Assembly: GCA_964539475.1 (NCBI GenBank)
Contig: CAZIIR010000001.1
Coordinates: forward strand, 2,869 to 66,868
Direction: 5' to 3'
From: an uncultured Candidatus Saccharibacteria bacterium
GTDB lineage: Bacteria; Patescibacteriota; Minisyncoccia; Phycocordibacterales; XYD1-FULL-46-19
Length of the DNA stretch: 64,000 bases
Shown here one piece after another: positions 21,241 to 46,034 of this stretch. The stretch's first letter is position 1, and each line of letters begins with the position of its first letter. A program made the position numbers and the translations under genes. The notes beneath the pieces were generated by a model. The model was not told where the DNA came from. It did not search any database and saw only the letters and a program-made list of their open reading frames with translations.

Positions 21241-22184
21241 TGAAAACACTAATACTACATCACAGCGCAGACATGGATGGCATATTATCAGGTGTAATAG
21301 CTAAATACTATTGCAGGCACACAGCCAATCCTGGTGATCATATTATTACAGCAGGAGCAGATTATGGTGACAATCTTGATAAAACATATCAAGGATGGTC
21401 ACTTGATCAGTTCGATAAAATCTATGTAATTGATTTTTCAGATGACTGGTTATTTACAAACGAAGCGATTCGTAATAAAATTATTTGGATTGATCATCAT
21501 ATTAACGCAATTGAAAAGAATTACAATGTAGCAAAATATGTGTTAGATGGAGTTGCTGCATGTAGGCTTACTCAGCAATTCTTTGCTAATGTAAATTATG
21601 CATTCCTTACCGAGTATGATTACATTGAAAGAAAAGTTAATGAACCATTGTTGGTTGCATTGATTGGAGAGCATGATATTTGGGATGAGTCATCAGTGTT
21701 TGCCAGAAAACTAAACTTTGGTATCACAAATATCAAATTTGAAGCAATTGAATTTCTTCACGAAGAAACAAGGCATGTAATAGCAGGTAAGAAAAATGAT
21801 GAGAAAAATCTTCATCAAAGCGAAAGGCTTGTAAGGATTTGTGATGTTGGTGAAGGTGTTATTAACTACATTCAAAGAACATCATCAATCCTTGGAGGTG
21901 GTATTCCAATAAATATATTCGGACACAAAGGTATTGCGTTTAATACTCATATCAGAAGTTCACTTATTCATCGACTTAAGGATGATGAGGAGTTTATGAT
22001 GGTATGGAACGATACTGGAAAACCATTAATGAAATTATCATTCTATTCAGAAGAAAAAGTGGAAGCACTTAAATTCGCAAAATACTTCGGAGGAGGAGGG
22101 CACAAGAGAGCTTGTGGATGCCAAGTCGATTTCAACACACTAACACTTATTCTTAAAAACCACTACGCAAATATCAAACCATGA
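21240..22184 (+). CDS. DHH/DHHA1 phosphoesterase (NrnA or RecJ-like)
   Basis: HHSADMDG, WIDHH and GGGGH motifs. Confidence 0.7.
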   Translation: MKTLILHHSADMDGILSGVIAKYYCRHTANPGDHIITAGADYGDNLDKTYQGWSLDQFDKIYVIDFSDDWLFTNEAIRNKIIWIDHHINAIEKNYNVAKYVLDGVAACRLTQQFFANVNYAFLTEYDYIERKVNEPLLVALIGEHDIWDESSVFARKLNFGITNIKFEAIEFLHEETRHVIAGKKNDEKNLHQSERLVRICDVGEGVINYIQRTSSILGGGIPINIFGHKGIAFNTHIRSSLIHRLKDDEEFMMVWNDTGKPLMKLSFYSEEKVEALKFAKYFGGGGHKRACGCQVDFNTLTLILKNHYANIKP

Positions 22185-25984: not shown

Positions 25985-26334
25985 GAATAGAAAAAGCTGG
26001 AATATTTTCACAAGGAAACAAAGTAAAACCAGTAAGAGATTTAGTTGAGTTTGAAAAAAGAATAAAAGAATCAATCTTCGATGAACAATATCCTCTCCGT
26101 GGTCAGGAGTATATTATTAACGAGTGTCACGATTATGCTCCTGTGCTATACACCACTGACGAGCGTGGAGAATATACAAACAACTTAGATGGTCGTAGGT
26201 TGATGCATTGCAGACCACACCTTCTTCAATTCAAAATAAAATTATTCGGATTTGAAATGAACTTAGACAAAGTTGGATTTGAGTTTATGTTCAGATCAAA
26301 TCTATTTGTTCCATATTGGTATAACCTTCCATGA
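25981..26334 (+). CDS. hypothetical protein
   Basis: ORF track. Confidence 0.45.
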   Translation: MRIEKAGIFSQGNKVKPVRDLVEFEKRIKESIFDEQYPLRGQEYIINECHDYAPVLYTTDERGEYTNNLDGRRLMHCRPHLLQFKIKLFGFEMNLDKVGFEFMFRSNLFVPYWYNLP

Positions 26335-26759
26335 GCACTAATTTTATTATTACAGGCTATGACGAACATGATTGGCCTGAGTATAGGGATCAAGAAAATG
26401 GCAACTACCAACATAAATGCACTAAATGCAATGCCGACTTTATTGGTCCAAAGCATATGTATTTTTGCAGGATATGCTGGCATGTAATTAAAAACACATG
26501 CCCTAAATGCTACAAGTCACCACTTCGTGTATTAACATGGAAGTCCTGCGGAAATGATGGAAAAAGTCATCACTGTTGGGACTGTGATTTTGTCACATTC
26601 CCTCAAGGAATCACAAAAGATAACTGGAAAAAGTTAATGGCAGAAGAGGAAAAAAAGACCAAAATAAAAATATGCGCTAGGTGTAAACATGAGCACACAT
26701 CTAAAACAAAGTGTTGCGAAAAGTGTAAGAAATATATGAGAGATATGTATCGACTGTAA
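26331..26759 (+). CDS. Cys-rich multi-zinc-ribbon protein (six CxxC pairs)
   Basis: CTKC, CRIC, CPKC, CWDC, CARC, CEKC. Confidence 0.5.
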   Translation: MSTNFIITGYDEHDWPEYRDQENGNYQHKCTKCNADFIGPKHMYFCRICWHVIKNTCPKCYKSPLRVLTWKSCGNDGKSHHCWDCDFVTFPQGITKDNWKKLMAEEEKKTKIKICARCKHEHTSKTKCCEKCKKYMRDMYRL

Positions 26760-26761: not shown

Positions 26762-27040
26762 TTACAAGTTAATCCTCGCTCTATTCTTCGCCTTCGACTG
26801 GAGGCGAAGATTAGTAATTTTATTAGTGCCTCCAGTTGATATTGGTTTCTTGTGATCTACGTCCTTATTCTTCATCATAGCTGATGCGCGTTTAGGTCCG
26901 TATTTCTTGGTAAGAAACACCTCCATATCACGCCTAGCTTTATTTCGCTGCGACCTCTGCTTTATAGTTTTTTTATTATAAAGCTTGTCTTTTGTGTAGT
27001 CTCTTCCGGTTGACTTATTATGGACTCGTTTCTTCTTCAT
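26762..27040 (-). CDS. HNH endonuclease, last gene of the late operon
   Basis: DVDHKKPISTGGTNKITNLRLQSKAKNR HNH motif. Confidence 0.55.
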   Translation of the reverse strand: MKKKRVHNKSTGRDYTKDKLYNKKTIKQRSQRNKARRDMEVFLTKKYGPKRASAMMKNKDVDHKKPISTGGTNKITNLRLQSKAKNRARINL

Positions 27041-30000
27041 ATGCAGCTAATTGTTCTTCGCGTTCTTTGCCTGATTTTTCGATTAAGCTACTTGCCCTAA
27101 AGTATCTCTTGATGTCTGGTTGTGATACACCAATCACTGCCGCAAGATTTACAAAATCCAGTGGTGATATAGCCTCTGGTTTTTGAAAGAACTTAGAACC
27201 GCTTTCAATAGCATCGACTATTCCTTCCACCGTTCCACCAAAACTTCCACCGATATTAGCAATTGTTCTTTGCTCATATACGGCAGGAAGAAACTCTTGC
27301 ATCTGAATGTTTGCCAACTCTTCACTTAGAAGAGTTACAGTCTTACGGTTTTCAAGAGCCTTGTGTCTTTTGATTAGTTTTTGGATTCGATCAATTTCTC
27401 CTTTTTTCCAAGCCTTGAAGGTTTCAGCCTCTGGTCCGTCAGATCCTACATGAATAATTATATTAGGAACAGCTTCAAGGTTAAACGGAATAAACATGTT
27501 AGATGCTGCATCCTTTACTGTCTTGATTGAAAGAATCCTTGTGTTGTTAGTTCTGTTTTGAATATTCTGAATAACCTTACGATTCTTTTCTCTCATAGAA
27601 ATCTCAGCATTGAGTGTGCGACGCTCATTTTTTGTCATTCTATTTTGAGACTTAGAGTAAAGCTTTTTTAATTCCTCCTCTTCTTCTGGATTCTTCAATG
27701 CATGAACAATAGCGGCAGCCATTCCATACTGAACTGCATATGCCATCATTGTATATGTTACAGATTGAGCAGCAATACCCATCATGTATTTAAATGATTT
27801 GGCTTTTTGTTCTCTACTTACATCTGAATCAAAAAGCCTTCTCATTTCCTTTCCAAAGTTTACAGCGTTATTGATCGAGAACGACCTAAACGCTATTAAT
27901 AAATTTCTTGCAATACTTATTTTAGCATCCTTGTTAGTGAGATACTCACCACGACGAGAAGCATCACCAATACCTATATAACGCTCTGTTGCGTCAATAG
28001 CTTTTATGTATGACACTGGATCGTATGTAAGGTCTTCAAGTCTGACATGAGTTCCTTTTGAGTCCTGTTCAGCATTAAGGTATTCAGCAAGTGCCATAGG
28101 AGCACCTGACAATGTATCAGAAAGCCTGAATGCTTTAAACAGAATATTTTCGATTCCTTTATCAACACCAACTACTGCCCTATACAAATAAGGCATTTCC
28201 TTTTTCATCATTTCAACTAATGAGCTAGGATTAATATCCAGATTAACTGATTTGTCGATTTCTTGGAATTGCTGGCGATGAGTTACTTCAAAGATAACCT
28301 TATCCACAAGTCTTGCTTGATGAGGTTCAAGCATTCCCATTCTGTGTTTTAATAAATATGTTGCAGCTTTAAAATAGTTGCCAATTTTGTGTGGCTCATT
28401 AATGTGCTGAACAAAGTATGGAGTAGTATTTGAAACAAGCTGTGCTGGCAACTGATGTAAACCAGACAATACGCCCTGAGCCCATTTTCTTCCAACCCAG
28501 TTTGTAGCAACATGGTATGAATGCATGTATGATGCTTGAGACATCACATTCTGCCACGTTCCATTCATCGCACTTCTGAATGCATCTGTCCGACCTCTCT
28601 TTTGTTCTGGATCACCTAAGAACTTAGCAAACAATTTTCCATTCTTGTTTTTGTGATTCAGCAATTGAGACATCTCCTGTCTTGCATGTGCTGTAAAATA
28701 ATCATACACAGCAATCCTGCCAAGAGACTCACCGGCATAATTTATATTAAACACAAGAGAACGATTTGTTCCTATTTTTCTTGTTCTCGACTTAGTAGAA
28801 CCAAGTCCAGTTGTATTTGTTCCATAAAATATTTGTCCAGAAGAGAATGATTGAGCATCAGTTAGCATTTGAGCTTTGGCGATATCAAAATCTGTATCAC
28901 CTTCACCTTTGATGATAACTGACATTGTTGGAATGTAGTTCTCGATTTCCTCAAATGGTCTTCCATAAATAAACTCTGTAGTGAACTTAGAAAGAGGTTT
29001 TAGTGCATCATACATCTTAACGATACCATCTGCATATTGGATTCCCTTGTCTCCAATAAATATATTAGCATTCTGGTAGAATTTAGCAACATCTTCTGGT
29101 GTGAAGTCAGAAGTAAGTTGTCCATTTTCTATAGTGTAGTTAATACCAGACAGGAAGTTATCTTCAAGATACTCTTGATGACGCTTTCCTTGTGCATCAA
29201 AGTCTCTATCGTAAACTCCAATAGTATTTTTATTAGAGTCAAGAACCCATTGGACGCTTGCTTTAAATCCCTCTTCAGGAGATTCAACTAATTTTCTTTG
29301 ACGAAGGATTCCAAACATTCCTATCTTGTTAGCCATGTCAGCATCAAGAACACCGTTATAAACATCACTTTGAAGTGATTCAATGTATGGTGTAATAACT
29401 TCTTCGTGATACCGTTTAGCAAGAACAAGACCTTCACGGAATGGTGCTTGAAGACGAGTCAAAAGATCGTAAGAATAACCATCGGTTGCAAGTCGTTCAA
29501 TCTGACTTGAGTTAGATTCAAGTTTAGATATGTCAGAGTTCTTTTTTCTTGTCCCGTATGGGTCACTAAACGTGGCCTCCATGTTTCTAATGATATCTGT
29601 TGTCTCACTACTAATAAATCCCTCAAGACGATTTGGATAGCCATCAGTAACAAGACTAAGAAGTGAGTAATAAACTCTGCGTAAATCTCCACCACTAAGA
29701 GATGTTGCATCCGTAGTAATTAAACTAAGCGCGTATTCATTAAATAGCTTACGCATTATTGCAACTTGTTCTCTTAGAATTGGAATACCATTATCCAAGA
29801 TTGGATTACCTGTCTCTACAAGGCTGCTATCAAGATCAACAACTCCACGGTTAATAATATCACTAATATCATCAATTGCTTCAATAGCTTGGAACTGGAG
29901 ATCAACAACAGCATCCATTGTTGCAATGTCAGAGTCGTTAATAACAACGGATGCAAGATCATCGTTCTTCTCTTGAATAAGGTCTTGAAAGTGTTTTCTC

Positions 30001-33000
30001 GCAGCGCCAGCGTCTTCATTAAAGAATGCAAACTCAGGAAATCCCTCTACTCGACTTGCGTAGAACTCGTATTCGTTTTTGTTAGCTTTCTTTTTATAGT
30101 CGATCAAACGCTGTTCAAGTGTGTCAACAGGAATCCTTTCAGTGGCAGGATTTTCCTGTTTGTTGCGAGTATTAACAAAGTCTTGATAATCAGCCAAGAA
30201 AGCCTCTACGTCATTATCGTTAAGGAATGCGTATGGAACACCTTTGAAAGCGTTGTTGATTTGAATTTCTTTACCCATGAGTTTTTGCTCATAAGTTCTC
30301 TTGATTAGTTTAGCTATTTCCTTAGAAGCTTTGGATTTAGATTGTGTAATAATTTCATTATCAGTCACAATCCAATCAAGATCGTTGTCTTCTGTTGGTT
30401 CTACTGGAGCTTTTTGTTTAGGCTGTGATTTGCTAAAACGAATGTCTGGAGAATTAGAGAATCGTTGAGACAAAGGAATTACATTACCTTGATCGTCTTT
30501 TGTAACAGGGTCTGAGGATTTAAATTGAGAAGAATCAAACCCAGCAATTGCGTCTGCTTCTTGCTCTGCGCTTTTTTCTCGTAAAAGAAAACCATCAAAA
30601 CCAGCTTCCAGTAGTTCTTTTTTTAACTGCCCCTTGTTTAATCTCTCAAAAACTGGACTCTGCATTCCATTGCTTGGCTTGGCCTTAACTCCCAACGATT
30701 GGACAAATGTATCAAATTCCTGGTTGCTAACACTTCCAGATCCAAGCTGCCGAAAATCTGCCGGATTTGAAATATTATGATAAAGACTCAATGATTTATC
30801 TCCAAAAAGTTGAGAATACTTTTTGTTTTCTGTGACGTATATCAACCCAACACCATCTGTCTTAATAGGAGATACCAAAAAACTTCTTCCTGTTGAGGTT
30901 AATATATTTCTAATCCTTCCAAATATATTAAAATCAGAATTTGTTGAATGAATAACCATAGATGGTTTGTATCCAGCCTCTTTAGCAGCCTCATCAACCA
31001 TCTTTTGAGCGGTGTCTAAATCACCAGACTTAACTGCCGCCAAGTATTTTTGATCTTTAACATTATTATTAGGCTGTGATTTACTAAATCTAAGTAGTCC
31101 ACGGTTTTGTGGAACACTGAACATGTATCCGGTGTTGGTGTCTTTATTAAACACAGCAGACTTACCTTTTCCGTGCCTACCAACTGTTACTTTTTTAGGT
31201 TGTGAGTTAGTAAGTTTTTTAAGACCGTTAGGAACGCGCTCGTCGTATGCGGCTTTCATTCCTGACTCTTGTTCTATTTTTGGAACTGATTTTTTTAACA
31301 GATCAGCTCTAACTGTTTCTCCATCATAAGTTGTTAAGCGATAGATATTACCGTCTGGTCCTTCTGATTTTATTCCAGGTATAGCTCCTTCGCTTCCATC
31401 TGCCATTGTATAAGTAGTATCAATATCAGTCCTGGGAATCCAATCATCTGGCATTTTAATGTTACCATTATTATACGATGCATTTTCTATAATATCTCCA
31501 TCTTTTTCTGGATTTGCAAGTTCATAAATATCACCAACTTGATCATGCCCCTCAGTCATCATTGCTGTTTCAGCATCGCTTGTAATAATTTTATCAGCAC
31601 CTTGTTCTTGTGCAAAATTAACAGCGGCTTTAAGTGCAAGTGATTCCCAATAGTTTAGGAGCGGAGATGAAATATCTTCTCCAAGACTTTCCCATTTATC
31701 AATAAGAAGAATATTGTCTTCTTTAGATATTACTTCATTTTCTTTATATTTATAAATATCAACACCAGTATCTTCTGCTTCTCGTTTTGTTAAATGCAAT
31801 GAATTAGACGACCCTTTTTTGCTAATAGTAATAGAATCATCTAAAAGCTCTATTACAAGATCAGATTTTTTATAACCATCTAATCTATTTTTGTCTCTAC
31901 TTAATTTTCCAGCCCAATCGCTTTGAACTTCCCATATTTCAAGAATGCGAGTTGGTTTAGTTGCGGTTGTTCCGTCTGGTAGTTTGTTTCCAGTTTGGTA
32001 TTCATGGATACCACCACGAACGAATGCTAGTTGGTTTGCTTTAACACTACCTTCGTAATGCTGAGATTCAAATTTAGGTTTTGGAGTTACTGTTGCTCCT
32101 GTGTCTCTTACGAATACAGTAATTGTTCTATTTTCATCGTAAATTGAAGACTCAGATGTTGTTACAAAATACCTAGGTTCTGGATATTTATTTTGAAACT
32201 CCTCAAGCTTACCTTCCTTTTCTTCTATTGGAAAGGATTCTTTTACAATATATTTATTATCATATAAAGAATTATCTATTTTATTTAAAGAAGATGATTC
32301 TTCACTTGGAAGTGGAACATTCAAACTCAAATCACCAGACCAAATAAGCTTATGTCCAGGCTCGATTTCTTCACCTTTAAGTTGTTCGTTTGAGTATGGA
32401 TCTACTCCGTATTTTCCGGTGGCAGAGCTATTTTTTGCCGCTAAGAAACTACCGGTAGAATATAGTTCAATATATTCATTAGCAAGTTTCTTTGCATTTT
32501 CTGGAAGTTCTTCTAATTTAACACCACCAAATGTTTTAAATACAGCAGTTTCACCAGTAAACATTGGAGCGTCAGGCGCAAACCCAATGGTTTCTAGTTC
32601 GTGCTGAACAACACCAACTGTTCTGCTTAATGCGCCACCACTAAAATCTAACTTATTTATTACAACAGTAGGAACTGTGTCGATCACTTCCGCCAGTTCC
32701 GACATATTAACACGACCATTTTTTGATAAATCGTTAACAAGTTGTGTCAGTGTATCAACCTCAAACTCAGTAGCTCCTGATTTTTTGATCTTAGCTGCAA
32801 GGTTTTGAGAAGGAAGAGTTCCATCTTTAGCCACAACAAGACCCATTACATTTTCAGGGTCTTTTAGTTGGTCAGCAAGACGAAAATCAAACTGGTTGGT
32901 TGAACGACTAAAGCGAGTTGCTGCTGGAGTTTTGTATAAATACTTATCTCCCATTATAACATTTTTATCACTGTTCATTCCTGCGAACTCAAGAACAGCT

Positions 33001-36000
33001 TTTTGAGATGAATTAAGTTTATACTGCTCATCAACAAGGATTGACGATCCGTTTATGACACGAAGATAACCACGTTTAGCCATTTCTGCATAAACCTGAG
33101 TAACCGTCATTCCTTCTATAGCTTCTTCGCCAATAATGTCAATAGCTTTTCCAAGATGGTCTTGATAACCAACATCGATTATTTTTCCATTAGGCGCAAT
33201 CCAAGCTCCGTATCCACGAATAACAGAATCCATGTAAACTGATTGGTGGGATTTGGAATACTGTATTTCTCCATTTGTTGTTATATCAGAATCAAAAGCG
33301 GTCTGAATAATAATATCAAGATCATTAACTGTCCAGTTTGCTGTCCCTGCTTTCAGGAACTTAATACGAATCCAATTAACAATCTTTTCAATAATTGATT
33401 TTGATTCTTTATCCTTTCCTTCTGTTAGTTTAGCAAAAATTTCATCAACAATTTCATTTTCTGTTAAGTTTTCTTTTGCATATGCAGCACTTGTTCTTTC
33501 CCAAACATTTGAACCGTCTCTCCATTTAAGGGTTTTTAAGAATGTAACTAAATTATTAAACCCTTCTTGGCTAATGCCAGAAAGAACGCCACTTAGTTTA
33601 AGATGACCAACAACTTCATGTTTAAATATTCTTTCTACCGCTTCCACATGTGACTCTCCTTTATGTGGAATAATATTATCAAGAATAATTGTAACATTGC
33701 CTTTTTGGACAAAAGCTTCAACGATGCTCGTAACATCTTCACGATTTAATTCCTCGTGTGTGTTTACGATCTTAAGGTCTTTCAGTCCAACGTCTTTTGC
33801 AAGCTCGTTAATTCTGTCAGTCTGCTCTTTTCTGCGAGCTATGTTTTCAGGAGTGTTTTCGCGTTGTTTGGCAAGAGTAGCTTGTGATTCTTCTCTGAAC
33901 TGCTCAATCTCTTGTTGAAGAATATCTAAAATATCAGGCTCGGATTCTTCAACCGGAGCGGTGTCTTGAACAGGAGCAATGGTTTCTTCAATAGCCTGCT
34001 CGACGGTTTGTTTAGGTGCTTTCTCTTTACCTTTCTTGATTGCAGTTTGAATGCTTTGTGCAAACTTATACAAGTCTCCATCGTAAGATGGAACACCATA
34101 TATTTCTGCAAGCTGTGGAAAGTTAGCTTCTGAAAGAAATCCACGACTAATTAAATTATTAAGACGATCTCCAGTAAAGTCACCTTTTTTAGAAAGTGAA
34201 ACAATCTGCATTAATGTTCCTCGATCAACTTCCTGTGCTGGCTGTTGTTCTGGATTTTCTTTTTTAGCAGTGAGTTCAGCAAGCTTAATTCTTGATGCGC
34301 TTTTTTGGCTTTCTGTATATTCACCACTCTTATCATTAATAACTTTATTATGAAGCGCAATACGATCTTCAATTGAAATTTGAACATTTGGCTGAATACG
34401 AGCCTTGTCTGCTTCTAGTTTTCCTATCCAATCTTTAGAGCGTATTTTTTGTTGTTCGGTTGCATTGTCGTCGTTTAATATTTTGTTGTGATAAGCCAAT
34501 GCCTTATCAATGCTTTCAATAGCTGCGCTTGGATTCTCAGTCTCATTGATCTGGTCAATGGTTTCGATTGTTGGAAGAACTGGTTCTGGTTCTACTGTAG
34601 GTTCTACGGTATCTTCTTCAACAGGCTCTACCGCAGGTGTTTCCACAGGCGTTTCCACAGTTTCTTCAACTGGAGTTTCAGCTTTTTTCTTTTTTCGTGA
34701 CGATGGCTTTTTAACTTTTGGAGCAACAACTTTCTTTCCTTCTGGAGTATTTTTATTAAGCTTTTCTGTTGCTTCATCTATTCTGGTTTGATCAATTGTT
34801 TCTGTTTCAACAACTGGAGCTTGTGTTTTTTCCAACTCATTGTAACGAGTTAGCTCAGTTGGTGTAATAGTATTATTAATCTTTTTTTCAAGCAAGTTTT
34901 CAAACTCTGCTTTATCTTTGTTATCAATAACTTCACTATCATCAACAAGAGAAGTCTTAGGCTTAACTTCTGCTGGATCAATTGCTTCCGCTGGTTCTTT
35001 AGTGGCAACTTCATTAGCTTCTCTGACTTGAGCTAATATTTTTATTTTGTTTCCAGTTACAACGACAGGAACCCACCCAACTTGTGGATTAACAGAAGCT
35101 TCGTATCTTTTAGCTAGTCCTTTAAATTTAACAAATCTCCTGTTAGGTGTTACCTGTAATGTAACAGGTGCTCCTAATGCTTTTATTAGGTTGGCGTTTT
35201 TAACCAATGCCATTCCTTCTTGTTTTACATAAATAACATTATCATTCTTTAGTTTGGTGTCATCATTAAGAGTAACATCAAATGGCTTCTTGGTTTGAAG
35301 CTGCTTATCTTCTCCTTTTAATATGAAATTTGTATCATTAGACTCAAACTCAGTTTCTTCTTGAAAAGCAATAGGACCAGCCGATGTTCCATCATCGTTT
35401 ATCTTTTCAAACAATCCTCTTGCTTTTTTTAACCTTTCAAGTTTATCTTTGTCTTTTACTGGATCAAGGTCTTTTTCAATTTTATTAAGCTCATCGGTAT
35501 ATGGCTTATTTGCAATTCTAATTTTAGACTGCTCTGGAAGAACCTCTCCAAGTCTTTCTTTTAGAGTAGCTTCTGCTTTGTCTTTGATCGGAGTTCCAGA
35601 AGGGTCGAGAGATGGCTTGGTATCTCCCTTAATAATTTTATCAGGAGCTTTTGCTGTGACATTAGAATTAGCTATTTCAATAGCCTTGTCGTAGTTACCC
35701 GCTTTGATAGCATCAAAGATTTTTAACTCTTTAGCTTTTGTGTCAGCAATACTAACTGTTTTACCAGCATCAGTTAATTGTGCAATAGTTGCAGAAACAT
35801 TAGCTTGGTTTGATCCTTTTGTTAATCCAGCTATTCCAGTACCAACCATTGCACCAACTGTTCCTTCGACAGCAAATGAACGAGCAAGCTCTCCGATATT
35901 AGTAGCATTCTTTAAATACTGCTCATCTCCAGTTGCATAGTAATCACCAAGGTTTCCGGCTACATCTGTTCCTACTCCACCAAGCAAGCCTTCGTTTAAA

Positions 36001-36968
36001 GAACCAAGAGTAAATCCCTTAACTACAGATGGTAAATATTCTTTAATAACGGCTCTTTTTGCAGCTTCTGTTGTAGCTGCATTAAATGCGCCAGCAAATC
36101 CTTTTACTTTTCCGAAAGCACCACCAAGAATAGACTCCGCTCCACCGTCAATAATACCGGCAGGAATTGCATTAACTGCGGCATCTTGTGCAACTAATTC
36201 ATTACCAGTTCTTTTAAGTTCACGATTATATGCTTCCGTCATATGACGGGCAGTTGACATCGTAAGAAGCGTTGGAGCAACAAGCTCTGGTGCTCCTGCG
36301 GCAGTCATACCAGCAGACAATGCCATTTGGCTAAGAAAATTACCAAGTCCACCAACTACTTGTGAACTAAGATTATTATCAAACTCTGGATTCTCAACCA
36401 AGTTTTTAGCAAAGAACCTATTGGCTTCTTTGTAGTCAGCAAAAAGATCAACACCAAGACCTCTAATTGCCTGTTCTGTGAATCGTTTAACTGAATCAGT
36501 CAAGAAGTCAGGCATACCACCTGGCTTGTAAGAATCCTTGGCAAGCTCACTCTTAATTAAATTATTAGCAAGGTCTTCGATGTGAAATTCAAAATCTTTT
36601 GCTATTGATGGTGCTTTTTTTGCAGAAGAAGGAACAGCATTATCTCTCCAGTCTTCAATAGACTTAACTCTCTTTTCAACAGGATCGTTAGCGTTTATAT
36701 TAATCTGACCATACAAATCGGCAGCCTGCTCAGGAGTTGGTGTAAAACGAGGAATATTTACATTGTGACGATATGATGTAAATATTTCAGCGGATTTATC
36801 ATTAACATACTTTAAATCCTCATCTTCTTTAATTTCGTTTTCATTAACAAATGTTTTACGAAAAGACTCGAAGGCAAGTGGCTTCCGCTCATCTGGAACA
36901 GAATTAAACTCTTCGCTGGCAAGATAACCTCTTACAATGTCTGGATAGTCAAATGAAGTGAGTGGCAT
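27018..36968 (-). CDS. giant (3316-aa) virion or ejection protein carrying a zincin-like HExxH motif, a Gly-rich N-terminal region, a PT/PE-rich linker and internal repeats
   Basis: One uninterrupted ORF. HEVVGH at residues 1117-1122 (about 33603-33620). A TPVE repeat linker. Duplicated ~35-aa units LAYHNKILNDD and IALHNKVINDK. No DxDGD or T7-like RNAP motifs found by eye. Confidence 0.7.
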   Translation of the reverse strand: MPLTSFDYPDIVRGYLASEEFNSVPDERKPLAFESFRKTFVNENEIKEDEDLKYVNDKSAEIFTSYRHNVNIPRFTPTPEQAADLYGQININANDPVEKRVKSIEDWRDNAVPSSAKKAPSIAKDFEFHIEDLANNLIKSELAKDSYKPGGMPDFLTDSVKRFTEQAIRGLGVDLFADYKEANRFFAKNLVENPEFDNNLSSQVVGGLGNFLSQMALSAGMTAAGAPELVAPTLLTMSTARHMTEAYNRELKRTGNELVAQDAAVNAIPAGIIDGGAESILGGAFGKVKGFAGAFNAATTEAAKRAVIKEYLPSVVKGFTLGSLNEGLLGGVGTDVAGNLGDYYATGDEQYLKNATNIGELARSFAVEGTVGAMVGTGIAGLTKGSNQANVSATIAQLTDAGKTVSIADTKAKELKIFDAIKAGNYDKAIEIANSNVTAKAPDKIIKGDTKPSLDPSGTPIKDKAEATLKERLGEVLPEQSKIRIANKPYTDELNKIEKDLDPVKDKDKLERLKKARGLFEKINDDGTSAGPIAFQEETEFESNDTNFILKGEDKQLQTKKPFDVTLNDDTKLKNDNVIYVKQEGMALVKNANLIKALGAPVTLQVTPNRRFVKFKGLAKRYEASVNPQVGWVPVVVTGNKIKILAQVREANEVATKEPAEAIDPAEVKPKTSLVDDSEVIDNKDKAEFENLLEKKINNTITPTELTRYNELEKTQAPVVETETIDQTRIDEATEKLNKNTPEGKKVVAPKVKKPSSRKKKKAETPVEETVETPVETPAVEPVEEDTVEPTVEPEPVLPTIETIDQINETENPSAAIESIDKALAYHNKILNDDNATEQQKIRSKDWIGKLEADKARIQPNVQISIEDRIALHNKVINDKSGEYTESQKSASRIKLAELTAKKENPEQQPAQEVDRGTLMQIVSLSKKGDFTGDRLNNLISRGFLSEANFPQLAEIYGVPSYDGDLYKFAQSIQTAIKKGKEKAPKQTVEQAIEETIAPVQDTAPVEESEPDILDILQQEIEQFREESQATLAKQRENTPENIARRKEQTDRINELAKDVGLKDLKIVNTHEELNREDVTSIVEAFVQKGNVTIILDNIIPHKGESHVEAVERIFKHEVVGHLKLSGVLSGISQEGFNNLVTFLKTLKWRDGSNVWERTSAAYAKENLTENEIVDEIFAKLTEGKDKESKSIIEKIVNWIRIKFLKAGTANWTVNDLDIIIQTAFDSDITTNGEIQYSKSHQSVYMDSVIRGYGAWIAPNGKIIDVGYQDHLGKAIDIIGEEAIEGMTVTQVYAEMAKRGYLRVINGSSILVDEQYKLNSSQKAVLEFAGMNSDKNVIMGDKYLYKTPAATRFSRSTNQFDFRLADQLKDPENVMGLVVAKDGTLPSQNLAAKIKKSGATEFEVDTLTQLVNDLSKNGRVNMSELAEVIDTVPTVVINKLDFSGGALSRTVGVVQHELETIGFAPDAPMFTGETAVFKTFGGVKLEELPENAKKLANEYIELYSTGSFLAAKNSSATGKYGVDPYSNEQLKGEEIEPGHKLIWSGDLSLNVPLPSEESSSLNKIDNSLYDNKYIVKESFPIEEKEGKLEEFQNKYPEPRYFVTTSESSIYDENRTITVFVRDTGATVTPKPKFESQHYEGSVKANQLAFVRGGIHEYQTGNKLPDGTTATKPTRILEIWEVQSDWAGKLSRDKNRLDGYKKSDLVIELLDDSITISKKGSSNSLHLTKREAEDTGVDIYKYKENEVISKEDNILLIDKWESLGEDISSPLLNYWESLALKAAVNFAQEQGADKIITSDAETAMMTEGHDQVGDIYELANPEKDGDIIENASYNNGNIKMPDDWIPRTDIDTTYTMADGSEGAIPGIKSEGPDGNIYRLTTYDGETVRADLLKKSVPKIEQESGMKAAYDERVPNGLKKLTNSQPKKVTVGRHGKGKSAVFNKDTNTGYMFSVPQNRGLLRFSKSQPNNNVKDQKYLAAVKSGDLDTAQKMVDEAAKEAGYKPSMVIHSTNSDFNIFGRIRNILTSTGRSFLVSPIKTDGVGLIYVTENKKYSQLFGDKSLSLYHNISNPADFRQLGSGSVSNQEFDTFVQSLGVKAKPSNGMQSPVFERLNKGQLKKELLEAGFDGFLLREKSAEQEADAIAGFDSSQFKSSDPVTKDDQGNVIPLSQRFSNSPDIRFSKSQPKQKAPVEPTEDNDLDWIVTDNEIITQSKSKASKEIAKLIKRTYEQKLMGKEIQINNAFKGVPYAFLNDNDVEAFLADYQDFVNTRNKQENPATERIPVDTLEQRLIDYKKKANKNEYEFYASRVEGFPEFAFFNEDAGAARKHFQDLIQEKNDDLASVVINDSDIATMDAVVDLQFQAIEAIDDISDIINRGVVDLDSSLVETGNPILDNGIPILREQVAIMRKLFNEYALSLITTDATSLSGGDLRRVYYSLLSLVTDGYPNRLEGFISSETTDIIRNMEATFSDPYGTRKKNSDISKLESNSSQIERLATDGYSYDLLTRLQAPFREGLVLAKRYHEEVITPYIESLQSDVYNGVLDADMANKIGMFGILRQRKLVESPEEGFKASVQWVLDSNKNTIGVYDRDFDAQGKRHQEYLEDNFLSGINYTIENGQLTSDFTPEDVAKFYQNANIFIGDKGIQYADGIVKMYDALKPLSKFTTEFIYGRPFEEIENYIPTMSVIIKGEGDTDFDIAKAQMLTDAQSFSSGQIFYGTNTTGLGSTKSRTRKIGTNRSLVFNINYAGESLGRIAVYDYFTAHARQEMSQLLNHKNKNGKLFAKFLGDPEQKRGRTDAFRSAMNGTWQNVMSQASYMHSYHVATNWVGRKWAQGVLSGLHQLPAQLVSNTTPYFVQHINEPHKIGNYFKAATYLLKHRMGMLEPHQARLVDKVIFEVTHRQQFQEIDKSVNLDINPSSLVEMMKKEMPYLYRAVVGVDKGIENILFKAFRLSDTLSGAPMALAEYLNAEQDSKGTHVRLEDLTYDPVSYIKAIDATERYIGIGDASRRGEYLTNKDAKISIARNLLIAFRSFSINNAVNFGKEMRRLFDSDVSREQKAKSFKYMMGIAAQSVTYTMMAYAVQYGMAAAIVHALKNPEEEEELKKLYSKSQNRMTKNERRTLNAEISMREKNRKVIQNIQNRTNNTRILSIKTVKDAASNMFIPFNLEAVPNIIIHVGSDGPEAETFKAWKKGEIDRIQKLIKRHKALENRKTVTLLSEELANIQMQEFLPAVYEQRTIANIGGSFGGTVEGIVDAIESGSKFFQKPEAISPLDFVNLAAVIGVSQPDIKRYFRASSLIEKSGKEREEQLAAYEEETSP

Positions 36969-36971: not shown

Positions 36972-38840
36972 TTAATCGTTTACAAATTTTGATTCGCTTA
37001 AGTAGTCCATATATCCTGGGACATCTCTAGCTTGGTCTGGCTTATTTTGTTCTAACCAAAAGAAAAACGCTCTATCTGGATCAGCGGCAATTTCTCTTTT
37101 TCTTCTTTCTATTCTTGCTTTTACAATACTCTCATCAAGTGACTCTGTGCTTGCAAACTCACCATAACTAAATGTATTAAAATCAACAATATCAAATGCT
37201 GCTGGTTTTTTATCAAATTCGCTAAGCCATTTAATATACTTTTGATTTACTGCATATGGGTTCTTTTTGTCTGGATTTTTATTTCCAAACATTTCTTCAA
37301 AGTTTCTGCGAAGACCTTTTATTTGTTGGTCTTTTTGAGTTGTAATATTTTTACTACGATCTACAATTTCAATTGAAAGCTTTCCATTTTCATCATACAC
37401 ACTCCCATTAGCTTCAAACACCTTTGCCTTTGGGTTTGATGTCTTTTCAGCGTCAACACTTGCATCCCAAGCTCCAACAGGAGGTGGTGATTCTATTGCA
37501 GGTGCTCCGTATTCCCTTTCAGCCATTGCTTCAAGATGACCAACAATTGCTCTTGTTCTTACCAATGGATCATCTGACTCTGGAATATTTTTAAAATCAT
37601 CACTTTGACGAAACTTAATAATAGCCAAGTCTGCTTTTCTTACAGCAAGATCAATCTTAGCAGGGTCTTCACCAAGACTAAGCATCTGACCCTTATACAT
37701 CTCTATCTTACGCTCAATTACTTTTTCTTGATCGGTATATGTTCCGTTTCCGTATCGTGAAGCAAGAACCTCGCCAATAGAAACAAACGCATCTTTTTGT
37801 GTAACTTTACGATCTTGATTAAGCTGCTCTCTGTCTTTTGGTGCAAGACGAGACTCATACTCTCTTGCAATATTTATATTAAATGGATTCTTTTCGTCAG
37901 ATTGAGCAATAAGCTCACCAACAATCATTTGGTATTGATCAAGAGAATCATACTCTTCAACAACCGGAGGCATTAGCTCCTTAGAGCGAAGCGGTCCAGG
38001 TTTTGTTCCAAACTTTTCAAATGCGTCAACCTCTTCTTCTTTTGGAGATGAATGGTTTTCTTGTGGAACCTTACCAGAGAGTATATCACCATTTTCATCA
38101 AGATTGTAAAGTTCTTCAAGTGGTTGAATTCCATTTTCCCATCCTGCTTTTGGAAGCAATGGATTTGGACCACCCTCTGTTCCATCTGGATTAACCTGTG
38201 CGCTTGGCCATGTTTCTCTTTTAATAGTTAATGGATCAACGCCAGCGGTAAGTTGGCTTGCGGCACTTGAAATTCTTAAACTTCTATCTCTTAGTTCTTT
38301 TCCTTTTTCGCTTATTCTCTTAAGGTCGTTTGTAATACTAATATATTCCTCACTTCCTTTTCTTGGCGCTGCTGCAACTATAACATATCTACCCTTATCT
38401 TTGTCAAAAAACTTTCCAGTTAGCCTCATGTTTAAGGCTTCTGACTCTTTCTGAATATCTTTTTGCTGTTGAGTTAATAGTTCAGCCTCATTGTTTATAG
38501 CAGAAACCAATGGACCAAGTGAAGCAGCTTTTTTTTCTTGATTGGCTCTTAAATCAAGATAATCTTTTTTGTAAGCCATCTCTGCCTTTTGGGCAGCTTC
38601 TCTTATTTGAAGTTCTTTTTGTTGAAGCTTAAGGTTTTCAGTTTTATACCACTCATCAACCTCAATCTGTTTTAAATTGATTGTAGATTTAACCATGTCT
38701 TGAAACATGGCTGATCTATCTCTGTATGACTGACCAATAGCATTAAAACCTTGCGTAATTGCATTAGCAAAGTTCCTGTCGGCTTGGGCTGTTAGTTGAG
38801 CACCATTTAAAATTGTGCTGGCTGTATTTTCAGTTCCCAT
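36972..38840 (-). CDS. internal virion or ejection protein (622 aa), coiled-coil rich
   Basis: Position immediately upstream of the giant gene in the tail/internal-protein cluster. Confidence 0.5.
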   Translation of the reverse strand: MGTENTASTILNGAQLTAQADRNFANAITQGFNAIGQSYRDRSAMFQDMVKSTINLKQIEVDEWYKTENLKLQQKELQIREAAQKAEMAYKKDYLDLRANQEKKAASLGPLVSAINNEAELLTQQQKDIQKESEALNMRLTGKFFDKDKGRYVIVAAAPRKGSEEYISITNDLKRISEKGKELRDRSLRISSAASQLTAGVDPLTIKRETWPSAQVNPDGTEGGPNPLLPKAGWENGIQPLEELYNLDENGDILSGKVPQENHSSPKEEEVDAFEKFGTKPGPLRSKELMPPVVEEYDSLDQYQMIVGELIAQSDEKNPFNINIAREYESRLAPKDREQLNQDRKVTQKDAFVSIGEVLASRYGNGTYTDQEKVIERKIEMYKGQMLSLGEDPAKIDLAVRKADLAIIKFRQSDDFKNIPESDDPLVRTRAIVGHLEAMAEREYGAPAIESPPPVGAWDASVDAEKTSNPKAKVFEANGSVYDENGKLSIEIVDRSKNITTQKDQQIKGLRRNFEEMFGNKNPDKKNPYAVNQKYIKWLSEFDKKPAAFDIVDFNTFSYGEFASTESLDESIVKARIERRKREIAADPDRAFFFWLEQNKPDQARDVPGYMDYLSESKFVND

Positions 38841-38850: not shown

Positions 38851-40062
38851 TTACGACATTCCTCCGCCTTGGCTGTATCCAGCTATTTGAACTTGCTGTA
38901 ATGATTTATAGTAATCCTGCTGTGTTCGAGAGTTACTATAATTTTGCAACGCTGACGCGCCGCCAGAAATAGCAGAAACCATTGCAGCATTATTATTAGC
39001 CTGACTTGCTTGATCCGCTGATCCCTGAGCTATTTCAGCATTTGAAATATTAAACATGTTTTCACTAAGCATTGCCTGTGAAGACATAAGCTGTGAACCA
39101 AGATTATTAATTGCTTGAGTTCCATAGCTAAGACCAGAGCTTGCAATGTTTTGAGCAAGTCCTGTTTTAACCTTTTCAATATCAAGCAACTGATCTTGAA
39201 CTCTTGTTAAAGAATTACCAAGGTTTTCTTCATTCCTAATACTAAGTTGAGCATTATTGTAAACCTTAGCTGTGTTTGCAGCCTCAAGGTCCATTGCTGT
39301 TTGAAGAGGGCTAATTGGATCAACAGTTCCTTCGCGAGAAAAGAAGTCAGAAATAGCAAGTGAATTAGAAAGACCTTGCTGTGAAAAGCTATAAAGGTTT
39401 TGAGCAGAAAGGTTTGCAAATGTTCCACTTGCTTCTCCTACTGTTAATGCCTTAAGTCCATACATACTGGACCGCATTATTTCTCCCATCTTTCCGGTAA
39501 ACGCATTACCATCAAGAGCAGCAAGAGATGAGTTCATTTGTTGCGCGCTTCGCAACTCATCTTGTGTTCCTCCAGTAATGAAATCAAGATTTCCTTTCTG
39601 AATAGCATCCCTGTATTGAAAATCATTCATTGATAGGCTTTTGGCCTCATCCATAAATGCTGACGCGCTTGGTGCGTCAATTCCTTCAATTACATTAGCA
39701 ATATTATTATAAGTGTTCTCAGCAATACCTCTTGATTCAAGTGCAATTCCTGGAGCTACATTTCCAAACTCAATCAATGAATCTTTTAGGAATCCAATAT
39801 ACTCTTCCTGCAACGCCATGCTTTGCTCGAACTGGCCTTCGGCAATTCCATTCATTGCTGCAAACTGATCGTTCGCAAATCCAGATTGATTTGAAAGTTG
39901 AGCCCTTGAATTTGCTGCATTTTGTTTAGCAGCTTTTTTTGATTGGCTTGCAGAGTAAACACTGTATCCAGTTGCAGCAACACTCGCTACGGCAGCTACT
40001 GTTCCTGCTACGGCAGCTACGGTTCCAAAGACAGGAACAAAAATTAAAAAGTCTAAGATCAT
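38851..40062 (-). CDS. internal virion protein with an N-terminal transmembrane segment and a Q/S/N/A-rich body
   Basis: The N-terminus FLIFVPVFGTVAAVAGTVAAVASVAATG is hydrophobic. Position in the cluster. Confidence 0.45.
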   Translation of the reverse strand: MILDFLIFVPVFGTVAAVAGTVAAVASVAATGYSVYSASQSKKAAKQNAANSRAQLSNQSGFANDQFAAMNGIAEGQFEQSMALQEEYIGFLKDSLIEFGNVAPGIALESRGIAENTYNNIANVIEGIDAPSASAFMDEAKSLSMNDFQYRDAIQKGNLDFITGGTQDELRSAQQMNSSLAALDGNAFTGKMGEIMRSSMYGLKALTVGEASGTFANLSAQNLYSFSQQGLSNSLAISDFFSREGTVDPISPLQTAMDLEAANTAKVYNNAQLSIRNEENLGNSLTRVQDQLLDIEKVKTGLAQNIASSGLSYGTQAINNLGSQLMSSQAMLSENMFNISNAEIAQGSADQASQANNNAAMVSAISGGASALQNYSNSRTQQDYYKSLQQVQIAGYSQGGGMS

Positions 40063-40472
40063 TTTAATGTTTTTATTAAAGGATTGTTTGGTGCATCCGT
40101 AAACTCTTCAATTATTTTCTCATGATCTGTCATGTCAGTAACATGAAATGTCGCCCAAATCGTATCAGTTACAGCATAAAGAGCACGCCTTGTTCCGGGT
40201 TTTGTTATTCCGTGATATGGAGCCTCAAATATTTCACGCTCATTTGTAAGTTCATTAATAACAATAATCTTACCTTTTGATATTACAAATGGATGCTCGT
40301 ATTTGTGGACCTTGCTTGTTAAAGCTGTCCCTGCTGGAATGTATATTATTCTTTGATACAGCCCAGGAGTAAAGATGTGCTTTAACGGAAGTTCAATTAA
40401 TTTTAAACCAGCAACAATTGCAGCTTCTATGCCGTCAACTATTGTTGGTTCTTTTAAAAGTTCTTCACTCAC
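40059..40472 (-). CDS. structural or tail-associated hypothetical protein
   Basis: ORF track, operon context. Confidence 0.45.
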   Translation of the reverse strand: MSEELLKEPTIVDGIEAAIVAGLKLIELPLKHIFTPGLYQRIIYIPAGTALTSKVHKYEHPFVISKGKIIVINELTNEREIFEAPYHGITKPGTRRALYAVTDTIWATFHVTDMTDHEKIIEEFTDAPNNPLIKTLK

Positions 40473-40510
40473 ATTTTACTATACTACATAATAAAATTAT
40501 TGCAAGTTGT

Positions 40511-41581
40511 TTATCGAATTTTCTTAATCTTTGAAAAGTCTCTAATTGAGCTAACTTGCATTTTAGCTGTGCTATTTGGCCTTTGCTCTCTTACTTCTTT
40601 AGCGAGAAGATTTATTCCTCCAAGTATAAAAGCTTCACCAAGCTGAATATTGTCTTCTGAGTATTTCTTTTGAACACCCTTTGCTATCGAGAGTATAGCA
40701 TTTTTATTATCAGATATTAGTATCTGAGTAGGATCAACAATGCTTGATGGTTTTGATCTTTTAAATAGACCTAATACACAATTGTTTTTAACGCAAGACT
40801 TTGATATTTGATATATCTTGTAGTTAGACGTTACTTCGTATGGCTCAAGCCTTGCTATTAATGTTCCAACATTTGTATCCTTGTTTACTAGGTAGTAATT
40901 AACAGGATTAAGAGTTGGGTCTTTAATGACGTTATAGATGTCTCCAATAATAATATCATTATAGTAAACTTGCTGACCTACAATTGGATACATTACTCCC
41001 TCATTGTATTTAACCTCTTCGTCAGCTAAGTCGCGATCTTCACAAACTATAGGCTTATTTTCTGTTTCTTCTTTATAGTAAGTGTATATTGGTCTTCCAT
41101 TGCATCCAAGAGATGAGACAAGTGTTTTCTTATTCTTCTCACAATCACCACCACATACAGCTATGTAATACTCGCTTTTGCAACCACTAGGTCCACATGG
41201 TTTGCACCATTGGCTATTAGGTTGAAACATTACAGGAGAATCACCGAGATGATAAACATCGTTACTAAAGCCATCTAAAGCTAATGGACTTTCCGCCGGT
41301 CCATTCTTATGGAATATAGCAGCGGTTCCATTTATATTTACAGGCTTAAAGTTTATATTACAACCAAGCAATACATTGTAACCATGGGGCGTAACAATTG
41401 TATTATCTTCTCTTACTGGAGTGTAAAAGAATTTCGTTGAACCATAAAACTTTCCAGATGACCAAATCTCATCTTGAACAAGGCTTAGTGTTTCAAAAAT
41501 ACGCTGCTCATCATTAGGATATGACATCCCAATGTATGGAGCTATAAACTCAGCTATTGATCCTGCTGTTTGATTAGACAT
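40511..41581 (-). CDS. putative tail protein
   Basis: ORF track, operon context. Confidence 0.45.
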   Translation of the reverse strand: MSNQTAGSIAEFIAPYIGMSYPNDEQRIFETLSLVQDEIWSSGKFYGSTKFFYTPVREDNTIVTPHGYNVLLGCNINFKPVNINGTAAIFHKNGPAESPLALDGFSNDVYHLGDSPVMFQPNSQWCKPCGPSGCKSEYYIAVCGGDCEKNKKTLVSSLGCNGRPIYTYYKEETENKPIVCEDRDLADEEVKYNEGVMYPIVGQQVYYNDIIIGDIYNVIKDPTLNPVNYYLVNKDTNVGTLIARLEPYEVTSNYKIYQISKSCVKNNCVLGLFKRSKPSSIVDPTQILISDNKNAILSIAKGVQKKYSEDNIQLGEAFILGGINLLAKEVREQRPNSTAKMQVSSIRDFSKIKKIR

Positions 41582-42012
41582 TATGTTAGTGCTGGTGGTC
41601 TAAGTATATACCAATACATTCTTTGAGTAGCGGTGGCAACTGGTGAATTTATTCCGTATGCATCAAGCTCTGCTACAGTAAGAGCGGCAAGGCCAGGTTT
41701 TAGATTTGCAATTGGAAGACTAAGAAATGGAATGTTAGCAGGGTATCCAGACAACGAGTAATCAACTTGCCACTCTCCATCTATATGTTTACCTATTCCA
41801 TAAGGAAAGCTGGTTTTTATCCAAACAAGCTTTTTATCGTCTCCTTTTGGAGTTTCATCGCTTTCAATAAAATTATTAACAAGGTTTGTTGAAAGCGAAA
41901 GATACTTAATAATAAAATTAAGAAGCTGTTCAGGTCCATCACAAAGACCTTTAAAACTTTCTGGAATAGGTTCAATATCTTTATTTATCGCTGCTGTAAT
42001 TGGTATATTCAT
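41581..42012 (-). CDS. putative tail protein
   Basis: ORF track, overlapping start and stop. Confidence 0.45.
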   Translation of the reverse strand: MNIPITAAINKDIEPIPESFKGLCDGPEQLLNFIIKYLSLSTNLVNNFIESDETPKGDDKKLVWIKTSFPYGIGKHIDGEWQVDYSLSGYPANIPFLSLPIANLKPGLAALTVAELDAYGINSPVATATQRMYWYILRPPALT

Positions 42013-43751: not shown

Positions 43752-43764
43752 AGTAATTATTTTA

Positions 43765-44871
43765 TTAAGCCCAAAAGCCTATTAGCGTAACAGTAGAGCT
43801 TGCAACAACTGGTGTTCCAGAAAGAATATTAGATTGAAGTGTAACAGTTCCACCGGAAGTTGTCACAACAAACACTCTTCGTGTAATAAATACAGATTCA
43901 CCTGCTGGAACATAAGCTACCTGTAACTGTGTTCCATTAACAGTAATATTCATTATTGACCCTGTTGCTCCTGCGTCTTCAATTACAAGAATAAGCTCAA
44001 GCTCAGCAACTACAGCACCACCACAAAGAGATATAGATGGAGCATTAAGACCTGCCCATGAATATGCTATAGATGTAGTATGACCTGTGTATAGATTATT
44101 AAGCCTTAAGTCCAATGACTTTCTATCGTGAGCAACACATAATGCTGGCTTTCCTTTTTTTAAGCATCCTTTTTCATCTGTGTAAACAAGATACTTGTGA
44201 GTCAATACATCGTTGTATGTAACGCTTGCTTCATTTGTTATAGACATTTCTGGCATACACAAAGTCCTGCCACCTTGTCCTGTAAATATGCGCTTTATCT
44301 TACGAAGACAAGCCTCGATAAATGTTCCACCAAAAAGAAATGCAGCCTGATGGTCTGGATCGGTATCAAGTTCTGGAGTTGCATAAAAGCAAATCTCATC
44401 TGATTCGTTTAATATTTTTATTACAGAATCAACTCCTTCTGTTTCAAGAAGAGTAAGAAATTGCTCTTTCAGATAGTCAGAGCATCCAAATGGAGGTGCT
44501 GGAAAAATAACCGCTCCTTCTGGAATTACAACTCCGGGCTCTGGATTGCCAGCTACCTTATTAATTGTATTTCCTTTCTCGCATCCATTAAGAACCTTAA
44601 GGACACGCTCTCCGACTTCTGTTATTCGATAGAATCCATACTTGGATTTACCAATTACAATTCCAACATACTGACCAACCCCCCACAGTTTAGCTTGGCA
44701 AACATGAAGATTTGCAATCTTTCCAACTGCTGGAACTGTAAAGTCCTCGATTGATCTATCGTGGAATTTACCAGATTGCGATGTGCATGGTGATCCTTCG
44801 TTCTGAACATCACTACAAAGAGTTGATGCAGGTATAAGGATTTTATCTTCGTTTTGGCATCCGCAGGACAT
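43765..44871 (-). CDS. Cys-rich putative tail protein
   Basis: ORF track. Confidence 0.45.
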   Translation of the reverse strand: MSCGCQNEDKILIPASTLCSDVQNEGSPCTSQSGKFHDRSIEDFTVPAVGKIANLHVCQAKLWGVGQYVGIVIGKSKYGFYRITEVGERVLKVLNGCEKGNTINKVAGNPEPGVVIPEGAVIFPAPPFGCSDYLKEQFLTLLETEGVDSVIKILNESDEICFYATPELDTDPDHQAAFLFGGTFIEACLRKIKRIFTGQGGRTLCMPEMSITNEASVTYNDVLTHKYLVYTDEKGCLKKGKPALCVAHDRKSLDLRLNNLYTGHTTSIAYSWAGLNAPSISLCGGAVVAELELILVIEDAGATGSIMNITVNGTQLQVAYVPAGESVFITRRVFVVTTSGGTVTLQSNILSGTPVVASSTVTLIGFWA

Positions 44872-44873
44872 AA

Positions 44874-46027: not shown

Positions 46028-46034
46028 AATATTT

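Follow-up and report, generated by a model that had tools for sequence, protein, structure and literature searches.

The stretch of DNA analysed here (the window) comprises 64,000 nucleotides of contig CAZIIR010000001.1 (assembly GCA_964539475.1), assigned to an uncultured Candidatus Saccharibacteria bacterium. On its minus strand lies a giant gene, a single uninterrupted open reading frame (ORF) of 3316 codons with an ATG start, which is the largest gene of an uncultured phage of ~67 kb and the last large gene of a minus-strand block. The protein that it encodes consists of a conserved N-terminal module, a centre whose domains differ even between close relatives, and a conserved C-terminal module that models as all-alpha (Table 1). 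Two of the central domains are recognizable, an ADP-ribosyltransferase (ART) of the ART-PolyVal family and a zincin-like metallopeptidase (MPTase), so that domains of disparate activity stand in one polypeptide with at least three further modules; no RNA polymerase (RNAP) module was found, as far as this could be tested by sequence comparison and modelling. We read this arrangement as that of an ejected phage “polyvalent” protein.

Whole-protein searches returned little. Scans with Pfam, PHROGs and NCBIfam gave nothing significant, PDB sequences gave no match, and no MuF or MuF_C domain was matched by Pfam in the whole protein or in its segments. Searches by tblastn of INPHARED (50,697 phage records) with the C-terminal 2000 amino acids (aa), and with two distant family members, found no match either, and a search of IMG/VR for related loci with a three-sequence alignment of the C-terminal module yielded no confirmed locus. 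Scans of GTDB genomes and IMG/VR for exact 41-mers were likewise empty. The public protein collection holds an identical protein once (P0001, NCBI, on a 67,206-bp contig).

Recognizable domains of the centre

The first search of that collection brought up a dozen proteins of 2-5 thousand aa whose match is confined to ~6% of the query, the majority with an ART-PolyVal domain (PF18760) and several with other “large polyvalent protein” Pfam domains. The shared part, residues ~1942-2205, corresponds to the Pfam-annotated ART-PolyVal of P0002 and P0005; the excised segment matches PF18760 over profile positions 5-133 of 140 (E 6.3e-4, 21 bits, below the gathering cut-off), and phmmer against proteins with a Pfam-annotated ART-PolyVal gives E values of 1e-18 to 6e-34. 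An H-Y-D configuration defines this family (Tox-ART-HYD2-like; PMC5512222), and all three residues were found in their strands (H in strand 1, Y in strand 2, D in strand 5): in an alignment of 21 sequences, H2007 is H in all 18 ungapped rows, Y2044 sits in a G-F-Y-F-T strand in a column that is mostly Y, F, H or W, and D2125 is D in 17 rows. The tail of the domain, KS.DPVT.DD.GN.IPLS.RF..S.DIRFS, is widely conserved. By its matches and its intact triad we take the segment to be an ART-PolyVal ADP-ribosyltransferase, for which catalysis on host proteins is predicted.

The other recognizable domain (D) carries the string HEVVGH. A sequence-only reading of this DNA, made before the present analysis, had placed the string correctly and labelled it HExxH; the label is wrong, the motif being HExxxH, one residue longer, and the expression HE..H has no match anywhere in the protein. 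Five proteins carry the domain in this form (HEVVGH in three, HEIAGH and HELVGH in one each), and because HE[VIL][VA]GH is thus kept in all five carriers, down to ~31% identity, the motif is no chance string. Many other family members have a canonical HExxH domain, often similarly placed; the profile of the five HExxxH sequences aligns with this sister cluster at an hhalign probability of 88.5% (E 2.7e-6), HEVVGH falling opposite the relatives' HExxH across a one-residue gap. Invariant in the merged alignment of nine sequences are G1090, H1117, E1118, H1122, E1176 and E1183, a pattern that is gluzincin-like; either of the last two may be the third metal ligand. An HEXXXH subset of polyvalent MPTases has already been described (Iyer et al., 2017; PMC5512222).

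The merged profile of domain D also aligns with C1, the HExxH zincin-like subdomain in the cryo-EM structure of the virion RNA polymerase (vRNAP) of phage N4, gp50 (PMC13434306; PDB 9PNR). Against an alignment of Schitoviridae vRNAPs built from nine phages, the hhalign probability is 85.5% (E 5.7e-6), with HE.H and the downstream Glu aligned and E1176 opposite the Glu of NEFMAW in N4 C1; the Schitoviridae C1 hidden Markov model (HMM) in turn picks up zincin domains in many members of the family (best 3e-11, <90 sequences searched). Domain D is, at the level of profiles, homologous both to canonical HExxH domains and to N4 vRNAP C1. The zincin assignment of the sequence-only reading holds in its homology, not in its motif type, and its fold was modelled with low confidence (see below).

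That reading had overlooked the ART domain and also four RFS motifs, at residues 1352, 1960, 2169 and 2177, which lie near module borders (0.36 would be expected from composition). Domains E and G and the ART each end in RFS(K/R)S, with one further RFS inside the ART tail, and the RFS(K/R)S sites coincide with points at which the module content of relatives differs. These sites may be protease sites or recombination-prone linkers.

A constant frame and a variable centre

The closest relatives in the protein collection are P0002 (88% identity) and P0003 (60%). A HMMER scan of 1.84 billion cluster representatives with a profile of the C-terminal 1136 aa found 69 proteins with the C module; the full-length ones measure 1.6-3.7 thousand aa and match at their C-terminus. 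The N-terminal module of ~450 aa is common to 47 proteins in hand, as judged by a local jackhmmer search, and a repeat homology search with an alignment of 16 proteins added only few further relatives. Between these two ends, D, E, F, G and ART are each present in some and missing from others of the relatives whose frames are 60-88% identical: P0002 has neither F nor G, carries E in a different place and contains a YkuD-like segment, P0003 is without the ART, and more distant members show other combinations. Among 16 members scanned, five carry ART-PolyVal, and LPD23, SAP, YkuD and DUF3990 each occur in single members. Sequence comparison thus shows constant N and C modules framing a swappable cargo centre, and because the frame stays constant while the cassettes differ, cargo function should be separable from delivery function. 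Polyvalent proteins, ART-PolyVal and HEXXXH MPTases are already described; what Pfam, PHROG and NCBIfam models do not cover is the frame, an N module and a ~1100-aa all-alpha C module in which neither MuF nor RNAP was found.

The YkuD-like L,D-transpeptidase segment of P0002 (locus L002) occupies aa 1476-1594, in the slot of F and G, at a sub-threshold Pfam E value of 1e-3; it may be a cell-wall-directed cargo.

An AlphaFold2 (AF2) model of the C module, made from a 32-sequence alignment, reached a predicted local distance difference test (pLDDT) score of 77 and a predicted template modelling score (pTM) of 0.71 and is almost wholly helical. Foldseek found no match for it in the PDB (best E 0.34, TM-score <0.1); in BFVD there were 48 matches at E<=1e-3 (top 3.9e-15, TM-score 0.48), nearly all of them last fragments of split giant phage proteins, under names such as PolyVal ART, LPD-containing, MuF_C-containing, nuclease, methylase and “structural protein.”

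Within the N module, residues 200-400 contain 14-16% Gly and 13-19% Ala per 100 aa, and there are weakly hydrophobic segments at 204-235, 263-285 and 361-383; no classical transmembrane helices were found, Kyte-Doolittle peaks reaching only 1.0-1.2. A Pro/Thr/Glu/Val linker of (TPVE)n type follows at ~763-797, after a Lys-rich stretch from ~757, and beyond it two tandem copies of ~40 aa (~818-857 and 864-905) align locally with a score of 68, where 500 shuffles gave 24.9 +/- 5.3 and at most 54. These features had largely been anticipated: the uninterrupted 3316-aa ORF is real, and the Gly-rich N-terminal part, the linker near residue 770 and the duplication near 820-900 were all recovered.

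Gene neighbourhood

Two ORFs upstream of the giant gene complete a trio on the same strand with the giant last, a gene order that the sequence-only reading had given and that we confirmed; the 622-aa ORF has no Pfam or PHROG match. Convergent with the minus-strand block is a plus-strand block of replication-type genes, among them those for UvrD-like and SNF2/ResIII-like helicases, MazG, a DHH phosphoesterase and a DnaA-like ATPase. Relatives keep the gene order around the giant gene, even the 30%-identical one (L014, a 69-kb contig); in the window and in relatives a small HNH-like ORF comes next after the giant gene, and then the convergent early genes. The giant gene shares its strand and its operon-like block with the one ORF, among ten of the structural block scanned against PHROGs, that matched virion structural and major tail families, and in this sense it is encoded together with late or virion genes. 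The contigs of relatives group at 67-69 kb, and by its sequences the phage looks like a lineage without detectable relative among cultured phages.

Table 1. Features of the giant gene and its surroundings in window coordinates.
Feature	Position	Strand	Remarks
Whole ORF, giant polyvalent protein, 3316 aa	27018..36968	-	Single ORF
N-terminal conserved module A, aa 1-450	35619..36968	-	Gly/Ala-rich; N-terminus of 47 proteins in hand; candidate membrane-interacting ejection module
Region B, aa 451-756	34701..35618	-	Common only to the two closest relatives
Low-complexity linker, aa ~757-797	34578..34700	-	Lys-rich, then (TPVE)n-like
Tandem ~40-aa helical duplication, aa ~818-905	34254..34517	-	Local alignment against shuffles
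Domain D, aa ~1040-1235	33264..33851	-	Zincin-like MPTase, HExxxH type; invariant residues and hhalign
HEVVGH motif, aa 1117-1122	33603..33620	-	Within domain D
Domain E, aa 1236-1356	32901..33263	-	Small module ending TRFSRS; in P0002, P0003, P0018 and P0021
Domain F, aa 1357-1626	32091..32900	-	Common only to P0003 and P0022
Domain G, aa 1627-1964	31077..32090	-	Core SDAETAMMTEGHD ... QExGM..YD, end LRFSKS; in 12 proteins
ART-PolyVal ADP-ribosyltransferase, aa ~1965-2180	30429..31076	-	H2007, Y2044, D2125 and conserved tail
C-terminal conserved module I, aa 2181-3316	27021..30428	-	~128 kDa; all-alpha (model); best-conserved core ~2640-3310
RFS motifs	~32901-32915, 31077-31091, 30435-30464		Near module borders
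Upstream 622-aa ORF	36972..38840	-	Candidate co-ejected protein, by position only; synteny kept in L001-L004 and L014
Upstream 403-aa ORF	38851..40062	-	Candidate co-ejected protein, by position only; synteny kept in L001-L004 and L014
92-aa ORF	26762..27040	-	HNH-like
142-aa ORF	26331..26759	+	Cys-rich
ORF matching PHROG families	47461..48447		Virion structural and major tail families
243-aa ORF	44874..45605		Syntenic to upstream peptidase genes of relatives
tRNA-Met (CAT)	17932..18008	+	Within early/replication block
Antisense ORF pair, 725/683 aa	51448..53625 / 51589..53640	+ / -	Most GC-rich part of window (0.42)
Antisense ORF pair, 522/388 aa	19042..20610 / 19057..20223	+ / -	

The 92-aa ORF is very basic, shares 23 nt with the 3' end of the giant gene and has the HNH-like signature DVDHKKPIS.GG....NL; counterparts of 91-94 aa stand in the same place in L001-L003 and L014. 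Facing the giant gene as the last gene of the plus-strand block is the 142-aa ORF, with many CxxC pairs, which is multi zinc-ribbon-like. There is one tRNA gene in the early/replication block, and in each of the two antisense ORF pairs one member is probably a shadow ORF. In L002 (542..994 and 1383..2117) and L014 (760..1506), genes for an M15 endolysin-like peptidase and an astacin/M10-like metallopeptidase lie upstream in the late block, and the 243-aa ORF is their syntenic counterpart in the window. L014 also carries a Macro-domain protein among its early genes (21466..21909, minus strand). Macro domains take off ADP-ribose, and the gene deserves mention because it sets an ADP-ribose remover beside a family of ART-carrying proteins that are presumably injected.

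Readings of the protein and known systems

We consider it probable, at roughly 0.68, that the giant gene encodes an ejected phage polyvalent protein with a conserved N module, a variable cargo that includes an HExxxH MPTase and an ART, and an all-alpha C module. Our best reading by analogy is a layout like that of N4 gp50 with effector cassettes in place of the polymerase. The giant protein would be a late product, probably carried inside the capsid, that enters the host by ejection along with the DNA. Module A would engage the ejection conduit or the membrane, as does the N-terminal domain (NTD) of N4 gp50, and the C module would be needed for encapsidation or act as a scaffold. Between them, low-complexity linkers would carry a cargo array of MPTase, modules E, F and G, and ART; the ART would modify host proteins with NAD+ early after ejection, on the model of T4 Alt, and the MPTase might release the units of the polyprotein by cleavage, possibly close to or at the RFS(K/R)S that closes E, G and ART. 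A polyvalent protein had been suggested from the sequence before, and this suggestion is now backed by the ART-PolyVal domain and by a modular centre that differs between close relatives.

A number of observations weigh against this reading. We infer virion packaging and ejection from gene position and analogy only, and the two modules that would carry the likeness to N4 are not detectably homologous: module A gives a colinear hhalign match to the Schitoviridae vRNAP NTD at a probability of 9% (E 3.5e-3, not significant), the C module compared with N4 C2 reaches 0.3%, and no N4 chain is found among the PDB fold matches. The PF18760 score of 21 bits lies below the 31.2-bit gathering cut-off. 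For domain D, the AF2 model from three sequences has a secondary-structure order compatible with a zincin (three-stranded sheet, N-terminal helix, two C-terminal helices) but is unreliable at pLDDT 57, and a PDB sequence search with the zincin profile found nothing. For the homologous C1 of N4 protease activity is undemonstrated, and gp50 enters the virion uncleaved (PMC5512222, PMC13434306). The enrichment in RFS motifs is only ~2-fold across the family, where it is concentrated in the central part of the proteins, and regions B, E, F and G (~1500 aa) are without functional assignment. Further, the phage itself is not recognizable by sequence: ten large ORFs of the putative structural block (40000..64000, minus strand) have no Pfam match, nine of the ten scanned against PHROGs have no match there, and ORFs of 715 and 788 aa that could encode terminase or portal found no match in INPHARED by tblastn.

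A bolder form of the same idea can be offered as a speculation that we ourselves doubt. The giant protein and its ~69 relatives would be RNAP-less counterparts of N4 gp50, with a frame dedicated to protein ejection (an N module that engages the membrane and the giant all-alpha C module), in which the polymerase slot is now a docking site for exchangeable anti-host cassettes and the RFS(K/R)S motifs that bound these cassettes are cleaved by the resident HExxxH protease, all within an undescribed phage lineage of ~67-69 kb.

The sequence-only reading laid its emphasis elsewhere, on the metallopeptidase as the main effector, which after injection would cleave defence or envelope proteins of the host. 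The motif and the two downstream glutamates are indeed strictly conserved, and host-directed proteolysis is listed as one possibility by Iyer et al. (PMC5512222), who nevertheless argue for self-processing of the polyprotein as the central role. Few parts of the centre are as constant across the family as this domain, which stands in a similar place in many members, and this constancy suits a function in housekeeping or processing more than one in rapidly evolving action against the host. We regard the peptidase as an unlikely main effector; the earlier interpretation is partly supported, being correct on its chief points (a polyvalent protein, a zincin-like domain, no RNAP) and going beyond the evidence on what the peptidase does.

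A purely structural role, as an internal or tail-associated protein (core, tape-measure-like or scaffold) with enzyme-like domains that are inactive relics, seems to us quite improbable. The helical or low-complexity N and C modules do make up about half of the protein, and no protease activity has been shown for N4 C1. However, the catalytic residues of the ART (H/Y/D) and of the zincin-like domain (H, E, H, E) are kept across diverged relatives, and a turnover of cargo between close relatives is typical of conflict effectors.

That the protein hides a virion RNAP, either an N4-like single-subunit or a crAss-like two-barrel enzyme too diverged for its motifs to be seen, is very unlikely and already largely refuted. 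The idea has its attractions: size, terminal position in the late operon and convergent layout all match N4 gp50, the same zincin-like domain accompanies N4-type RNAP modules, no phage RNAP turned up elsewhere in the window, and there is ample unassigned sequence in B, E, F and G. The Schitoviridae RNAP HMM, however, found nothing in the giant protein or its relatives (best E 0.044, in a database of <90 sequences), and hhalign with the nine-phage Schitoviridae RNAP alignment gave no match in the giant protein; a T7-like single-subunit module was thus found neither by HMM nor by hhalign. Since F and G are missing from the 88%-identical P0002, they can hold no essential polymerase parts, and the C module alone combines conservation with sufficient length for a polymerase. 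Structure modelling for this question covered the C module, and its almost purely helical model, which shows no beta-barrels and matches no polymerase fold, excludes a right-hand palm and double-psi beta-barrels there. A motif search of the whole protein agreed with the sequence-only reading that DxDGD is absent and that only SYDGD (residue 962) and EKDGD (residue 1822) occur, the latter in a non-conserved insert of module G. The earlier view that no RNAP is recognizable has thus stood up, as far as it could be tested. A candidate pol-I-like motif B in R-SLV-F-NIN-Y-AG (aa ~2736-2746) was rejected; its Y is unconserved in the family and the region models as helical without a palm.

Least likely of all is a conjugative or other mobile element whose polyvalent protein is delivered by a type IV secretion system (T4SS): ART and MPTase polyvalents are also common in conjugative elements (PMC5512222) and most ORFs lack recognizable phage homologues, but Pfam scans of the giant protein and 20 other large ORFs gave no relaxase, T4SS or ArdC-N match, one neighbour matches PHROG virion families, an M15 peptidase adjoins the block in relatives, the related contigs group at 67-69 kb, and the only BFVD proteins that the C module resembles are those of phages.

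If the protein is an ejected polyvalent protein, it belongs to a class thought to be the first weapons fired into the cell, of which almost none has been studied experimentally. The family is a natural experiment, with constant N and C modules and differing cassettes at 60-88% frame identity. It is also relevant to the passage of a 380-kDa protein through a 35-angstrom channel in N4-type phages and, if the layout is truly shared, RNA polymerase would be only one of the passengers that are possible. Testable predictions on polyprotein processing follow from the conserved HExxxH domain and the RFS motifs, and the ART domain is a candidate for a new host-takeover or anti-defence enzyme.

Among known systems, the ejection trios of podoviruses (T7 gp14/15/16, P22 gp7/20/16, N4 gp52/51/50) are alike in consisting of three consecutive late genes with the largest last and in having helical, Gly-rich, weakly hydrophobic segments. 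The likeness is one of position only, since no solved ejection protein resembles the window protein in sequence or, to a significant degree, in PDB fold; BFVD gave a weak match to a 1401-aa “lysozyme” of Marinomonas phage CPP1m.

The resemblance to N4 gp50 goes further. The two proteins are of similar size (3316 and 3500 aa), and each gene closes the late operon at its 3' end, following that of a protein of ~620-640 aa and facing the replication genes. In gp50, a lipid-binding NTD with Gly-rich hydrophobic helices is followed by a ~100-aa low-complexity linker and a central enzymatic module, then by the zincin-like domain and a mostly helical C-terminal block of ~110 kDa without structural homologue (PMC13434306). 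The general order of Gly-rich hydrophobic NTD, low-complexity linker, central module and huge, mostly alpha-helical C-terminal block recurs in the window protein, whose linker at aa ~757-797 resembles in position the low-complexity linker between NTD and RNAP of gp50 (PMC13434306), and the zincin-like domain is homologous (C1; probability 85.5%). In contrast, no RNAP module was found in the window protein, its zincin-like domain precedes the cargo, where that of gp50 directly precedes the C-terminal block, its motif is HExxxH where N4 has HELVH, and a pairwise comparison of the window ORFs with N4 proteins gave nothing significant. Because only the zincin domain is demonstrably homologous, we treat the likeness of the frame as analogy and not as membership.

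For the action of the cargo the model is T4 Alt, a virion-packaged ART that is delivered with the DNA and modifies host proteins early; Alt-type action after injection is the functional model proposed for ART-PolyVal (PMC5512222). Alt belongs to the R-S-E clade and stands alone, whereas the ART of the window protein falls into the H-Y-D clade and is one part of a polyprotein. The closest parallel is with the polyvalent proteins of Iyer et al. (2017, J Bacteriol; PMC5512222). Unlike their typical phage-type members, the window protein has neither a MuF anchor nor an N4-like RNAP module, as far as profile searches show, and brings N and C modules of its own; like them, it is one giant late-gene polypeptide of unrelated domains that are shuffled between relatives, and it combines their two commonest domains, a zincin-like MPTase (in the HEXXXH variant) and an H-Y-D ART-PolyVal.

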